Shown: in pieces, positions 56,347 to 64,000 of the stretch
Layout of the letters: each line of letters opens with the position of its first letter
How positions within the stretch are numbered: position 1 is the stretch's first letter
Source: Gammaproteobacteria bacterium
GTDB taxonomy: Bacteria > Pseudomonadota > Gammaproteobacteria > Xanthomonadales > Rhodanobacteraceae
Length of the DNA stretch: 64,000 nucleotides
Assembly (NCBI GenBank): GCA_021325195.1
Contig: JAJPHQ010000091.1
Coordinates: 15,223-79,222 of the forward strand
Reading direction: 5' to 3'
The notes under the pieces: generated by a model
The model's database searches: none
What the model saw: the letters and a program-made list of their open reading frames with translations, nothing else
What the model was told of the DNA's origin: nothing
Translations under genes and position numbers: made by a program

Positions 56347-57111
56347 TCATCCGCGCCCACAGGAATCCGGCGAGGCCGGCGGGGTGTCGCCCGAAAACTT
56401 CACGGCAGTCGCGCCGGAGACGGTGCCGCTGACATGGGCCTGGTCGCTGATGTACAGATTGACCTTGCGCTCGAAGGTGAGCGGGCCGTTCACGGTCGCG
56501 CCGGGGCCGATCACGATGCGCGGCACGCAATCGCTGCCGAACGAGATGCCGAAGAAGCCCCCGTGCTTGGGCTTCTTCACGGTGATGCCGCCATCGACCA
56601 CCGACTTGCCGGTGATGTCGATGTTGCCGTTGGCGGTTTCGATGCCTCCGCCCACGTGCGCATCGGTGACCGCGATGTGGCCGTTGACGTTGGTCAGCTT
56701 GCCGCCCACCGTTGCACCCGGTGCGAGGGTCATCGAACCGTTCACGGTGGTGGCGTCGTGCTTGACCTGGGCGCCTGCAGCCAGTGCGATCGAACCGTTG
56801 ACGGTGGTCGCGTCCCGTGCGACGGCGTTTTCCTCCAGCCTGATGGAACCGTTGACGGTGGTGGCATCGCCGACCACGCCGCCGCCGGCGACGGTGACGG
56901 AGCCGTTGACGGTGGTGGCATCGCCGGCCTTGGCGTTGGCGCCCACGCGCACCGCGCCGTTCACGGTGGTGGCGTCGCGCACGCTGGAGCCGGACGCCAC
57001 ATCGATCGAGCCCAGCACCTTGCTGTTGCCGTCGCCCATGTCGCAGGCAGCCACGGACAGCGGCAAGGCCAGCATCACGAACAGATGGGTACAAACACGA
57101 GCAGCCTTCAT
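56347..57111 (-). CDS. Lipoprotein with 18-19-residue DATTVNGS repeats (predicted beta-helix; bactofilin/adhesin-like)
   Basis: ORF 56347..57240; start at MKAARVCTHLFVMLALPLSVAAC (lipobox). There are five exact DATTVNG units and two degenerate ones with an 18-19-aa period. Confidence 0.65.
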   Translation of the reverse strand: MKAARVCTHLFVMLALPLSVAACDMGDGNSKVLGSIDVASGSSVRDATTVNGAVRVGANAKAGDATTVNGSVTVAGGGVVGDATTVNGSIRLEENAVARDATTVNGSIALAAGAQVKHDATTVNGSMTLAPGATVGGKLTNVNGHIAVTDAHVGGGIETANGNIDITGKSVVDGGITVKKPKHGGFFGISFGSDCVPRIVIGPGATVNGPLTFERKVNLYISDQAHVSGTVSGATAVKFSGDTPPASPDSCGRG

Positions 57112-57263
57112 GACCGACCTCCCACGCGCCGGATGCGCGTCACCCAGTGCATCGTGCCCCGGGGCGCCGCGTTTGCCAATAGGACCAAGGTCACCGTGAC
57201 AACTGTCAGGTCGCCGTTGGTGAACCGTTACAATGCGCATTTCCGCCTGCCCGACGTCACGCC

Positions 57264-61646: not shown

Positions 61647-62822
61647 TTACGGCCACACCCGGTGGGCTGGATCGAACTCGACGGTCGCTCTGGTCACGGC
61701 GCGCACGCCGAAACCGCACACGGCCAGCGGGCCTTCGGCCATCGGTTCCAGCCCGAACGCCTGCTCGATCTCGACCTCGTTGATGGCGGCGGTGATGAAG
61801 GCGCCCAGGTTCATTTCGGTGGCGCCCAGGTAGATCGCCTGCGACAGGTGCCCGGCATCCAGGATCACCGCGCGATACGCCTTGGCATGGTTGCGGTATT
61901 TCCAGAAATTGCGTTCGAAACGCGCCACCAGCGCGATCTGCAGCGGCGCGGCGGCGTAATACGCCTGTGCCGCGACGAAACGGCGCGCAAGTTTTGCCGC
62001 CTCGTCGGCATCGAGCGCGCGCAGCGGTTCCAGCGCGTGCTCGACCGGGTGGTAGTGATACAACCCCGGCGCGATGCCTTCGACGCGCTGCACCAGCAGA
62101 TACGCCTCGACCGCGTGCAGGCCGCCCGCCGACGGCACGCCCTTCTTCAGGAGTTGCACGCCCGGCGCGTAATCGCTGACCGCGCGCGCACCGAACGCGC
62201 GGTACAGCACCGCGGAAAACGCATCGAACGACAACGGCGCGGGATCGTAGTTGCGGCAGGTGACGCGCCGATCCATCAACGCATCCAGCGGCGACGGCGA
62301 CGGCTTTTCCAGCGGCAGGCGCGAGGCCGCCGGCGCGCGCTCGCCGACCACGGGCGGCGCCGGCCCCAGCCGCTCCAGGAACGTCTGCGGACTGGCTTCG
62401 GAAAACAATCGCTCGACGGCTTCCGAATCCACGCCGCGCCAGCGGGCATGGCGATGCGTGACGGCGGACAAGCCTCGCCAGTGCACCGCGCGCACGGCTT
62501 CGTCCGCCTGCGCGAACTGGCGTGATATTTCGTCGGCCGGTGCCTGCACGATCAGCAGGCCTTTCGCCAGCAGCGCCTCGAGCACCGCCCGCGGATGCCG
62601 TGACGACAACTCATCCAGCGATTGCCAGTGCCCCGGCGACAGCGCGCCCAGCGCGGCGACCGCGGCCGCATCCAACGGAATCTCTTCATCGCAATGCGCG
62701 GCCAGCGCCAGCCAGCCGAGGCGTTCGCGCACGCCGGTTTCGCCCAGCGCCAGTTCGACAAGGTCGAAGTCAATGGATTCGCGCGGCTCGACCAGCACCA
62801 CCGCGCAGCGGCGGACGCGCAT
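61647..62822 (-). CDS. SagB/ThcOx-type (nitroreductase-fold) dehydrogenase with ~190-aa N-terminal extension; putative peptide-maturation dehydrogenase
   Basis: 391-aa ORF. C-terminal half motifs: DRRVTCRNY, VPSAGGLHAVEAYL, FWKYRNHAKAYRAVILDAGH. No YcaO-like gene is adjacent within the window. Confidence 0.75.
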   Translation of the reverse strand: MRVRRCAVVLVEPRESIDFDLVELALGETGVRERLGWLALAAHCDEEIPLDAAAVAALGALSPGHWQSLDELSSRHPRAVLEALLAKGLLIVQAPADEISRQFAQADEAVRAVHWRGLSAVTHRHARWRGVDSEAVERLFSEASPQTFLERLGPAPPVVGERAPAASRLPLEKPSPSPLDALMDRRVTCRNYDPAPLSFDAFSAVLYRAFGARAVSDYAPGVQLLKKGVPSAGGLHAVEAYLLVQRVEGIAPGLYHYHPVEHALEPLRALDADEAAKLARRFVAAQAYYAAAPLQIALVARFERNFWKYRNHAKAYRAVILDAGHLSQAIYLGATEMNLGAFITAAINEVEIEQAFGLEPMAEGPLAVCGFGVRAVTRATVEFDPAHRVWP

Positions 62823-62833
62823 GAATCGGCCGC

Positions 62834-63094
62834 TCAGGGTGAACCGCTGAGTTCGAGACGCTTCTCCACACGCTCGATGCGCTCGACAAGGCGGTCGATC
62901 GCAGCTTGCTGGCGCGCGTGATCGCCATACAGATCGGCATAATCCGCATGGCTCTTGGCTTGGCCACGCTCAAGACTGGCAAGGCGAAGCTTCACATCCC
63001 GAAATTCGTCGTGCATTTCGGAACGCACGGTCTGCATCTCGTTCCGCAGGCTCTTCAGCATTTCCAGGATCAGGTTTTCGACGTTCTCGCTCAT
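62834..63094 (-). CDS. Hypothetical 86-aa coiled-coil protein, upstream of and co-oriented with the SagB-type gene
   Basis: ORF 62834..63139 (TTG at 63139); first ATG at 63094 (MSENVENLILEMLKSL…). Heptad-like charged helices. It ends 12 nt before the SagB-type ATG. Confidence 0.5.
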   Translation of the reverse strand: MSENVENLILEMLKSLRNEMQTVRSEMHDEFRDVKLRLASLERGQAKSHADYADLYGDHARQQAAIDRLVERIERVEKRLELSGSP

Positions 63095-63150
63095 GGCGCT
63101 TTCGACGGCCCCGCGCGGCAGGGTTCTATGGTACCGCAAGCGGGCTGGAT

Positions 63151-63166
63151 TGGCAGGGCGCTTGCA
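63151..63166 (+). promoter_or_regulatory. Near-consensus sigma54 (-24/-12) promoter upstream of the 96-aa peptide gene
   Basis: TGGCAGGGCGCTTGCA compared with TGGCACG-N4-TTGCW: GG (63152-53) and GC (63164-65) are separated by exactly 10 nt, with a single mismatch in the defined positions. The -12 GC lies 36 nt upstream of the ATG at 63202. Confidence 0.6.
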
Positions 63167-63201
63167 TGAGCTCTGTCAGTCCCTCAACAAGGTGAACCGC
63201 C

Positions 63202-63492
63202 ATGGCCGATTCGAAGTTGTCGCGCGAGCACTCGCTCGCCCTGTTGCACAAGCTCGCCACCGACGACGGCTTCCGCAGCCGTTACGAGCAGAAGCCTGCC
63301 GCCGCGCTGGCCGAGCTGGGCGTGCCGCTGGAAACCATCGTGAATCTCAAGGCGTCGTGCGTTGCCCCGACCAGCTTGGCTCAAAAAGAACTTTTCCGGG
63401 CTGCGCATACTGAATGGGCGACCGCAGCGACCGAAGAATGCCTGATGATGAATTGGCCGTCGGTAAAGATGGGTTTCGGTTCCGGCGATTAA
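63202..63492 (+). CDS. 96-aa peptide with nitrile-hydratase-leader-like (NHLP-like) N-terminus; candidate RiPP precursor
   Basis: MADSKLSREHSLALLHKLATDDGFRSRYEQKPAAALAELGVPLETIVNLK… matches the NHLP leader pattern (helix, D..F+..L…P.AAL.E.G..L). AAGGTG lies 7 nt before the ATG. Cys53 and Cys80 sit in the C-terminal half. Confidence 0.6.
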   Translation: MADSKLSREHSLALLHKLATDDGFRSRYEQKPAAALAELGVPLETIVNLKASCVAPTSLAQKELFRAAHTEWATAATEECLMMNWPSVKMGFGSGD

Positions 63493-64000
63493 TGCACTCC
63501 CCCGAGTGATTTCAACCTGCTCAGACGGGGCGCCAGCCAAGCTAACTCCCTTGCTCGAGGCCACGCATCCAGGAATGTCGCCAGGGAGTTTTGGGCCTCC
63601 GCTTCGTTGCCCAGAGCCCTCGACAGCTCCGACGCACGCAGGAGCGCCAGATCGGATTCGGCAACATTGAAGGGCTCCAGCATCAACTGCATGTTGGCTT
63701 CCCCATAAGCACGTCCACGATGACTGGACAGCCAATGGGCTTCGGTCAACGCGGCGGATGAATCGTGGGCGTCCGCATTGGCTTCCATCAGTGCGACGTG
63801 GGTGAGGTACAACTCGCTGCCGTTGACCAGCGGCTTCAGGATTGCCAATGCATCTTTGGGCCTGCCGGAAGCTCGTTCGATTTCAGCCCGCACCACGTCG
63901 AGCAGGTTGTCCAAGATCGGCATGTCTGCGTCGGACGCGGGGCCGGCGATGGCAAGCGCCCGCTTGGCGAGATCGACGTCACCCGCGTGCGCGGCCAGAT
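63489..64000 (-). CDS. C-terminal fragment of a helical-repeat (TPR-like) protein; 5' end beyond the window
   Basis: The frame is open from 64000 down to the stop at 63489-91 (…LAAHAGDVDLAKRALAIAGPASDADMPILDNLL…SRLKSLGGVH*). Its stop codon overlaps the stop of the 96-aa peptide gene. Confidence 0.55.
   Translation of the reverse strand, partial: LAAHAGDVDLAKRALAIAGPASDADMPILDNLLDVVRAEIERASGRPKDALAILKPLVNGSELYLTHVALMEANADAHDSSAALTEAHWLSSHRGRAYGEANMQLMLEPFNVAESDLALLRASELSRALGNEAEAQNSLATFLDAWPRARELAWLAPRLSRLKSLGGVH

Follow-up and report, generated by a model that had tools for sequence, protein, structure and literature searches.

What does a flavoprotein oxidase of the SagB/McbC type do where no cyclodehydratase supplies it with azolines? 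The Os1348 cluster poses the same puzzle, as do some graspetide clusters. Do Gram-negative bacteria also have circuits through which a ribosomal peptide acts on cyclic-nucleotide and cyclic di-GMP (c-di-GMP) signalling? Both questions are raised by a locus in a Gammaproteobacteria bacterium of the Rhodanobacteraceae. We analysed a 64,000-nucleotide stretch of its DNA, here called the window (GenBank assembly GCA_021325195.1, contig JAJPHQ010000091.1, positions 15,223 to 79,222 of the forward strand). Near the end of the window is an open reading frame (ORF) of 96 codons. The original prediction, made from the letters of the window alone, presented it as a candidate precursor of a peptide that is ribosomally synthesized and modified after translation (RiPP), with a leader resembling the nitrile hydratase leader peptide (NHLP) type. 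Our analysis identified the precursor as the small-protein component of a self-contained module, in which it is encoded on the strand opposite to a receptor-type cyclase and a SagB-type dehydrogenase. The reading we favor, and consider somewhat more probable than its negation, is that of a peptide-linked signalling module. A leader-guided, flavin-dependent oxidation would take place in a C-terminal motif of the peptide and be coupled to the receptor cyclase, a cyclic nucleotide (cNMP) and c-di-GMP. The module would then be a signalling circuit and not a classical thiazole/oxazole antibiotic cluster.

The precursor gene and its family

The ORF translates into 96 amino acids (aa), MADSKLSREHSLALLHKLATDDGFRSRYEQKPAAALAELGVPLETIVNLKASCVAPTSLAQKELFRAAHTEWATAATEECLMMNWPSVKMGFGSGD. 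Its features are those originally described, with the leader-like pattern at residues 8-50, only two Cys (C53 in ASCVAPTS and C80 in EECLMMNW) and the C-terminal end GFGSGD. The 96 residues contain no GG or GA dipeptide, and the statement that a double-glycine motif is missing holds as well.

The peptide matches the NCBIfam family TIGR04509 with 55.6 bits (cut-off 34, E 4e-15), its residues 6-79 aligning with profile positions 2-75 of 87. The same family is matched by 70 of 70 diverse relatives. NCBIfam calls it 'NHLP-related RiPP peptide' (mod_pep_NH_fam), a name that several homologues of the precursor bear in GenBank. The neighboring genes belong to TIGR04510, 'putative peptide modification system cyclase' (mod_pep_cyc), and TIGR04511, 'putative peptide maturation dehydrogenase' (SagB_rel_DH_2, a SagB-related dehydrogenase). 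The window locus scores above all three curated cut-offs, its genes are adjacent, and it does not differ in kind from the set. The precursor is thus one gene of a curated three-gene set that the NCBI pipeline names automatically, and the proposal of a small-protein gene beside a SagB-type gene is confirmed. The set is known by sequence models and names ('putative') alone. Our analysis adds to these names that the precursor is invariably placed antisense, that modules can be repeated in tandem, that the cyclase has a receptor-like topology and that a gene for a cNMP-binding GGDEF protein is linked.

The ORF is a genuine, conserved small-protein gene. Its length of 96 codons is weak evidence of coding, because long shadow ORFs abound at the 68% G+C of the window. 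One of 183 codons lies opposite the precursor locus itself (63184..63735, minus strand). Such ORFs are what speaks for a chance ORF in G+C-rich DNA that has no product, an explanation to which we give almost no credence. Against it are the family match by hidden Markov model (HMM), the presence of a Shine-Dalgarno site, hundreds of full-length homologues, a ratio of non-synonymous to synonymous substitution rates (dN/dS) of about 0.2, and a position and orientation that are invariant in 77 loci.

The homologues at E <= 1e-3 number 212, and most of them align along their whole length with 67-84% identity. When 1.84 billion representatives were searched by profile without a filter, 239 clusters (50% identity level) were found, and a search repeated with a diverse precursor alignment recovered the same close relatives. 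To collect related loci, GTDB was scanned with an alignment of the dehydrogenase, each species being represented by one genome, and the best 79 loci were taken from 376 relatives. In 77 of them the family HMM identified 118 precursor-like ORFs. All 118 are intact, and the interruption in relatives that the original prediction had named as a possible refutation is not seen.

Pairwise dN/dS, which had been proposed as a check, is ~0.20-0.25 among 22 close orthologues, indicating purifying selection. By segment it is 0.11 in codons 2-54, ~0.28 in 55-79 and ~0.27 in 80-96. These values are low in all three segments, so every part is constrained and none is hypervariable. The G+C content by codon position is.60/.47/.75. 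The synonymous rate (dS) in codons 2-54 (window 63202..63363; orthologues in our loci L005-L028) has a median of 0.75, compared with 1.5-1.7 elsewhere in the gene. Possible reasons are nucleotide-level constraint, gene conversion among paralogues and saturation.

The relation to canonical NHLP leaders is weaker than was proposed. Against the NHLP-leader model TIGR03793 the precursor scores 12.3 bits, below the cut-off of 50.9 (E 0.12), and seven of 70 diverse relatives reach E < 0.01. This lack of significant similarity comes close to refuting the NHLP-like leader. The precursor is not a member of NF038399 ('Os1348 family NHLP clan protein') either, with 21 bits (cut-off 40), and 56 of the 70 relatives match that model weakly. 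The similarity to NHLP-clan profiles is weak and confined to ~35 residues (13-49). The resemblance thus amounts to a clan-level motif of ~35 residues and not to membership.

Canonical NHLP or proteusin-type precursors (TIGR03793), a family said to have been described by Haft et al. in 2010, share with the window peptide the N-terminal motif K-L-A-x-D-D-x-F-R-x-x-F-x-x-x-P-x-x-A-L-x-E-x-G and a long leader of ~80 residues. The window locus differs from them in the missing double-Gly site. It also has no nearby peptidase-containing ABC transporter, radical-SAM enzyme or cyclodehydratase.

Comparison of the single precursor sequence with solved structures gave chance matches only. The family profile matched the borosin precursor SonA with E 0.047 and the nitrile hydratase alpha chain 1V29 with E 0.67. 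Neither match is significant, and the attempt to connect the family with nitrile hydratase or NHLP by way of known structures was given up. The idea that a C-L-C-M motif is a relic of the nitrile hydratase metal site C-[ST]-L-C-S-C was dropped as well, as the offset in the weak 1V29 alignment misplaces the motif.

Overall, the earlier interpretation is right in kind and is in public annotation already. Its boundary between leader and core, the weight given to Cys and the strength of the NHLP relation need correction. The alternative that it raised, a modified small protein, is still plausible. The annotation of the precursor as such is ordinary and will not surprise a specialist, given that the NCBI pipeline names such proteins already.

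Organization of the peptide and the dehydrogenase

Several lines of analysis were used to delineate the parts of the peptide. Among 120 close homologues, the mean column entropy is 0.32 bits in residues 6-54, which are almost invariant, and 1.51 bits in the rest. The orthologue comparison suggested originally thus shows a better conserved N-terminal part. Residues 6-50 follow the pattern L-S-R-E-H-x-L-x-L-L-x-K-L-A-x-D-D-x-F-R-x-R-[YF]-E-x-x-P-A-A-A-L-x-E-L-G-V. The conserved anchors past residue 54 are L59, K62, F65, A68-H69, L72, C80, M83 and P86. In the wider family R25 and L59 are invariant, and almost the same holds for L14, L18, D22, L36, G40, K62 and P86.

Paralogues of one locus differ most in residues 51-79 (mean identity 0.31). 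Conservation returns in residues 80-91, whose consensus across the family reads [C/H]-[L/V]-[C/S/x]-M-h-h-P-x-h-[K/R]-h-[D/N/G]. M83 is found in 71 and P86 in 101 of ~103 aligned precursors. Several homologues stop 4-5 residues past P86, and residues 92-96 are a dispensable tail.

The AlphaFold2 model of the precursor contains short helices at residues 8-20, 22-30, 32-39 and 43-48, with a predicted local distance difference test (pLDDT) score of ~80. A long helix follows at 62-82. The tail at 83-93 is of low confidence (pLDDT below 50). Entropy, dN/dS, the model and the C-terminal motif agree on a three-part layout. Taking the model into account, we read the precursor as a leader-like helical handle of ~80 residues, a conserved and probably flexible segment of ~12 residues, and the dispensable tail. 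The 46-residue C-terminal core that had been proposed is unlikely, because helices are predicted to residue 82, residues 55-79 are the most variable, and a conserved motif is present only at 80-91.

The pair of Cys, put forward earlier as a notable feature, fares no better. Among 116 aligned precursors, C53 is kept in 48, a Cys is present at positions 78-83 in 77, and nine have no Cys at all. At two loci (L054, L066) the sole precursor is Cys-free, and the dehydrogenase still has FWKYRNH. Judged by these alignments, the family as a whole conserves neither Cys, and the two are not defining.

Paralogues provide a further view of the motif, which is often better conserved than any other part when they belong to one module. 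Between precursors of the same module, identity within residues 80-91 is 0.58-0.83 in 12 of 16 scorable pairs, with four exceptions. It is 0.09-0.58 in the six pairs that have a common dehydrogenase and separate cyclases. It appears that the motif is kept among precursors with a common cyclase, an observation that is suggestive only, as there are few independent duplication events.

A divergent, Cys-free type of precursor, 83-84 aa long, ends in GMGWFLL(N/S)K and does not contain the M-x-x-P motif. It is found in L062 (11944-12200), L068, L071, L075, L078, L044 and L055, in second modules of Dokdonella-type loci. It too is antisense, between paralogues of the cyclase and the dehydrogenase.

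The dehydrogenase scores 481.6 bits against TIGR04511 (cut-off 240) and 123.7 bits against the SagB domain model TIGR03605 (cut-off 78.4). Its AlphaFold2 model (pLDDT 85) contains a nitroreductase-fold domain with K308-Y309. The best Foldseek matches are the thiazoline/azoline oxidases BmdC, ThcOx and McbC, with E values of 1e-15 to 1e-13. In profile alignments the invariant F306-W-K308-Y309 falls on FWKY of ThcOx and on PKY of BmdC. The match to McbC pairs residues 223-372 with 116-265, and these equal lengths place K308-Y309 on McbC K201-Y202 by offset. The catalytic Lys-Tyr pair of McbC abstracts the alpha proton of the azoline (PMC6395948). Judging from its residues, the window enzyme looks catalytically competent for dehydrogenation between C-alpha and C-beta next to flavin mononucleotide (FMN).

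Residues ~1-110 of the dehydrogenase form an extra N-terminal domain of strands plus helices (beta/alpha) that has no sequence match. Our guess is that this is a peptide-recognition domain. A PqqD-like RiPP recognition element (RRE) was not detected in the dehydrogenase by sequence; the modelled N-terminal domain is compatible with one.

Among relatives, the Os1348-Os1351 cluster of Pseudomonas sp. Os17 is the nearest to have been studied and the only one with genetic data. It encodes an 85-aa NHLP-clan protein, a GNAT protein, a peptidase-like HEXXH protein and a SagB-type dehydrogenase of 650 aa (PMC7726476). An Os1348 mutant loses part of its antibiotic activity, and secretion of Os1348 was not detected (PMC7726476). 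The structure of Os1348 (PDB 6LK7) is a folded dimer. It is the best fold match of our precursor model, although this match is not significant (E 0.7, probability 0.51). Both systems have a small helical NHLP-clan protein beside a SagB-type dehydrogenase, and neither has YcaO, SagC or SagD. They differ in their other genes. The GNAT protein, the HEXXH protein and the longer dehydrogenase are features of Os17, in which the cluster adjoins an RND efflux pump. The cyclase and the GGDEF gene are present in the window module and missing from Os17.

The fold and the catalytic Lys-Tyr pair of the dehydrogenase are shared with the McbBCD (microcin B17), SagBCD (streptolysin) and ThcOx (cyanobactin) systems. 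The peptide could accordingly be asked to be a classical antimicrobial precursor, of the kind called linear azole-containing peptides (LAP) or thiazole/oxazole-modified microcins (TOMM), with the cyclodehydratase, protease and exporter encoded elsewhere in the genome. The closeness of the dehydrogenase to BmdC, ThcOx and McbC is in its favor, as is position 82, which is Cys, Ser or Thr in ~70% of precursors. So is the reduced antibiotic activity upon loss of the distantly related Os1348. However, no YcaO/cyclodehydratase was found among the called genes within 10 kb of the window locus, a search that did not extend to the rest of the genome. Nor does a YcaO or cyclodehydratase gene lie within 8-10 kb in any of the 79 loci, even though the module duplicates as a complete unit, and no protease or exporter is conserved with it. 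The window peptide has Met at position 82 and two Cys only, its C-terminal motif is not rich in Cys, Ser or Thr, and nine relatives are Cys-free. The conserved partners are signalling proteins, a cyclase and a cNMP-GGDEF protein, in place of immunity or export genes. Together these observations make an antimicrobial of the LAP/TOMM type quite improbable.

Module architecture and signalling partners

The trio of cyclase (cyc), precursor (pre) and dehydrogenase (dh) genes is present in 77 related loci. All 118 precursor-like ORFs are located between cyc and dh on the opposite strand (cyc> pre< dh>). Fourteen loci contain two or three modules in tandem. Other layouts include two successive cyc-pre pairs followed by a single dh, and modules with two or three precursor paralogues. 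The best 79 loci from the 376 relatives are all from Lysobacterales, namely Rhodanobacter, Rudaea, Dokdonella, Mizugakiibacter and other Rhodanobacteraceae; the scan relied on two short conserved patterns and cannot show absence elsewhere. Two very divergent precursors (P0385, P0306) are found in the same four-gene arrangement, including the cNMP-GGDEF gene. Clustering of all ORFs in the loci revealed no further gene family common to the module.

The stop codons of the convergent cyc and pre genes are a median of 5 nt apart. Of the 79 pairs examined (L005-L083), 33 have an overlap, which reaches 56 nt at most, and in the window the two stop codons share ATTAAT (63489..63492). Such close stop codons leave no room for separate terminators, so the transcripts must be antisense at their 3' ends. 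The convergent overlap and the location of dh downstream of cyc suggest that transcription of cyc-dh is antisense to pre and may form a switch.

The window contains the 3' end of cyc. The full gene, on the same contig in public assemblies (L001; L002 = GCA_037025085.1), encodes 887 aa and scores 874 bits against TIGR04510 (cut-off 400). Over residues 13-117 the protein matches Ma1120, an active adenylyl cyclase of mycobacteria (E 9e-15), and Rv1900c is also matched. At least 95% of 87 homologues keep D28, D71 and R145, and alignment with Ma1120 puts D28 and D71 at the two metal-binding Asp residues.

The strongest hydrophobic window of 19 residues is located at ~230-250, after a basic WWRRP stretch, in 87 of 87 homologues. 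No N-terminal signal sequence was found in the cyclase. This single hydrophobic stretch without a signal sequence indicates that the cyclase domain is cytoplasmic and that the remaining 630 residues are periplasmic. The periplasmic part begins with an alpha/beta domain (255-410) that is well conserved; the tetratricopeptide (TPR) and helical repeats that come after it are poorly conserved. By its predicted topology, the cyclase has a single-pass receptor layout.

Directly upstream of the cyclase and on the same strand is a gene for a 340-aa protein composed of a cyclic-nucleotide-binding domain and a GGDEF domain. Its phosphate-binding cassette F-G-E-L-A-L...R and its GGDEF motif are conserved among 52 homologues, and none of the 52 has an RxxD inhibitory site. 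Such a gene is located just upstream of the first cyc in 52 of the 61 loci with enough flank.

Table 1. Positions of the module genes, parts of the peptide and neighboring elements in the window
Feature	Position	Strand	Evidence and remarks
SagB-related flavin dehydrogenase, 391 aa (TIGR04511)	61647..62822	-	Family match, model, fold matches; immediately upstream of the precursor
Divergent pre-dh intergenic region	62823..63201		Presumed promoters; unusually long here, 380 nt
Coiled-coil ORF, 86/101 aa, lineage-specific	62834..63094 or ..63139	-	Inside the pre-dh gap; gene call in public assembly
Shine-Dalgarno-like AAGGTGA	63189..63195	+	Read from the sequence; 6 nt 5' of ATG
TIGR04509 peptide gene, 96 aa, stop codon included	63202..63492	+	ATG-to-TAA ORF, family match, homologues, dN/dS
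Helical N-terminal domain, residues 6-50	63217..63351	+	Low entropy, dN/dS 0.11, predicted helices; presumed leader-like recognition part
Residues 51-79: C53-L54, L59-A-x-K62 anchor, variable amphipathic helix (62-82)	63352..63438	+	Paralogue variability, dN/dS ~0.28, model
C-terminal motif C-L-M-M-N-W-P-S-V-K-M-G, residues 80-91	63439..63474	+	Family conservation; presumed modification/recognition site
TIGR04510 cyclase, 3' end (last 170 codons of the 887-aa gene)	63489..64000	-	Open frame to the window end, profile positions 722-813

Scans for promoters, terminators and Rfam families around the precursor gene found no sigma-70-like promoter and nothing else. The coiled-coil ORF in the pre-dh gap has coding-like G+C by codon position (.70/.34/.68). 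It has no family match and no homologue in the 79 related loci. We rejected it as a fourth component of the module because it is absent from all related loci, and on this comparison it is probably outside the system. Recurrent neighbors of the module (comM/yifB, xdhC, a mobA-like gene, a molybdopterin oxidoreductase, a Na/H exchanger and pirin) are explained by chromosomal synteny.

Several loci have two or three cyclase genes, each with its own antisense precursor, and one dehydrogenase gene: L060 (1-9200, Dokdonella sp. MW10), L064, L065, L067, L077 and L080. The cNMP-GGDEF gene is absent from these six. A 102-aa ORF is found on the precursor strand between the dehydrogenase gene and P0385 (L084 6633-6941, L085 1551-1859), and is probably a second precursor paralogue. 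Elsewhere in the window, an ORF of 297 aa (56347..57240, minus strand) encodes a lipoprotein-like N-terminus followed by many 'DATTVNGS[IV]' repeats.

A possible peptide-linked circuit

We propose the following sequence of events. The helical N-terminal domain (residues 6-50) and the helix extending to ~82 would form a folded, leader-like handle. This handle would dock the precursor on the flavoprotein, perhaps at the extra N-terminal domain of the dehydrogenase. The flavoprotein would then dehydrogenate a group in the flexible motif at 80-91, using the Lys-Tyr/FMN machinery of azoline oxidases. The peptide, as ligand or partner, would be functionally coupled to the 887-aa protein, with its cytoplasmic class-III cyclase domain, single transmembrane helix and periplasmic alpha/beta and TPR regions. 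The cyclic nucleotide made by this protein would be read by the adjacent cNMP-binding GGDEF protein, which would make c-di-GMP.

Covariation between the peptide and its partners was analyzed by mirror-tree and partial correlations. The C-terminal motif correlates with the TPR region of the cyclase at 0.35 and with the N-terminal domain of the dehydrogenase at 0.38. Its correlation with the catalytic domain of the cyclase is 0.04. These are small effects from quick alignments and non-independent loci, and this weakness is the first of several points that count against the proposed circuit. With no YcaO/cyclodehydratase, the dehydrogenase is left without a known type of substrate. The mean pLDDT of the precursor model is 67.8, which is moderate confidence only. 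The cyclase domain scores 21.0 against Pfam PF00211, just below the cut-off of 21.9. The position presumed to hold the purine-specifying Lys is an invariant Asp68, and Pro141 is located where, we assume, the catalytic Asn would be. With these atypical residues, the cyclase may be inactive or make an unusual product. Nine Dokdonella-type loci have no cNMP-GGDEF gene, and their flank contains pirin, SDR and FAD-binding genes. A search of a literature library found no paper that names TIGR04509, TIGR04510 or TIGR04511 or describes the set, and no experiment on any member.

The most serious of these points concerns transport. No C39/ABC transporter gene is found within 10 kb of the precursor, and none is conserved in the 79 loci. 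With no exporter, leader peptidase or double-Gly site, the route of a cytoplasmic peptide to the periplasmic TPR region is unexplained. Transport is the weakest link, and we thus retain as a substantial rival, if an unlikely one, that the precursor is a small cytoplasmic regulatory protein and not a RiPP. It would remain intact inside the cell and regulate or join the dehydrogenase or the cyclase domain. Its oxidation by the flavoprotein would be optional, and the periplasmic TPR region would sense an unrelated environmental cue. Apart from the missing protease, exporter and cleavage motif, this explanation draws support from purifying selection over the full length (dN/dS 0.11-0.29 in all three segments) and from the conservation of length and helix pattern across the family. 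It also agrees with the related Os1348, a protein that is a folded dimer in the crystal and of which no extracellular form was detected. It accounts less well for the last ~14 residues, which are predicted to be disordered and yet bear a motif, as expected of a substrate or ligand segment. A module can hold up to three precursor paralogues, as is typical for substrate peptides but would be unusual if the precursor were a stoichiometric subunit. In addition, a catalytically intact homologue of peptide oxidases is always adjacent.

The peptide-linked signalling module that we favor has functional analogues, for which no homology is claimed. They include the RRNPP TPR receptors of Firmicutes, NisRK in lantibiotic autoinduction and the animal receptor guanylyl cyclases that are activated by peptides. 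In each, a linked peptide is combined with a TPR or extracytoplasmic sensor that is coupled to a second-messenger or regulatory output. RRNPP receptors are cytoplasmic. To our knowledge, no bacterial receptor cyclase activated by a ribosomal peptide has been described.

A more ambitious version of the favored module would be a bacterial circuit resembling those of peptide hormones. Oxidation without a cyclodehydratase would be followed by export, the C-terminal motif would be recognized by the TPR region, and a cNMP-activated diguanylate cyclase would set the level of c-di-GMP. We hold this complete version to be possible but doubtful. If it is true, the tandem modules would be parallel private signalling channels, and the convergent overlap of pre and cyc would be an antisense switch by which either the signal or its receptor is made.

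The strict antisense module, the receptor-like cyclase, the linked cNMP-GGDEF gene and the lack of antibiotic-type accessory genes lead to testable predictions. Cultured hosts are available in Dokdonella fugitiva, D. ginsengisoli, Dokdonella sp. MW10, Mizugakiibacter sediminis and Aquimonas voraii. With its signalling-type partners and an oxidase free of any cyclodehydratase, the module provides a concrete, testable case for a new peptide-linked second-messenger circuit.

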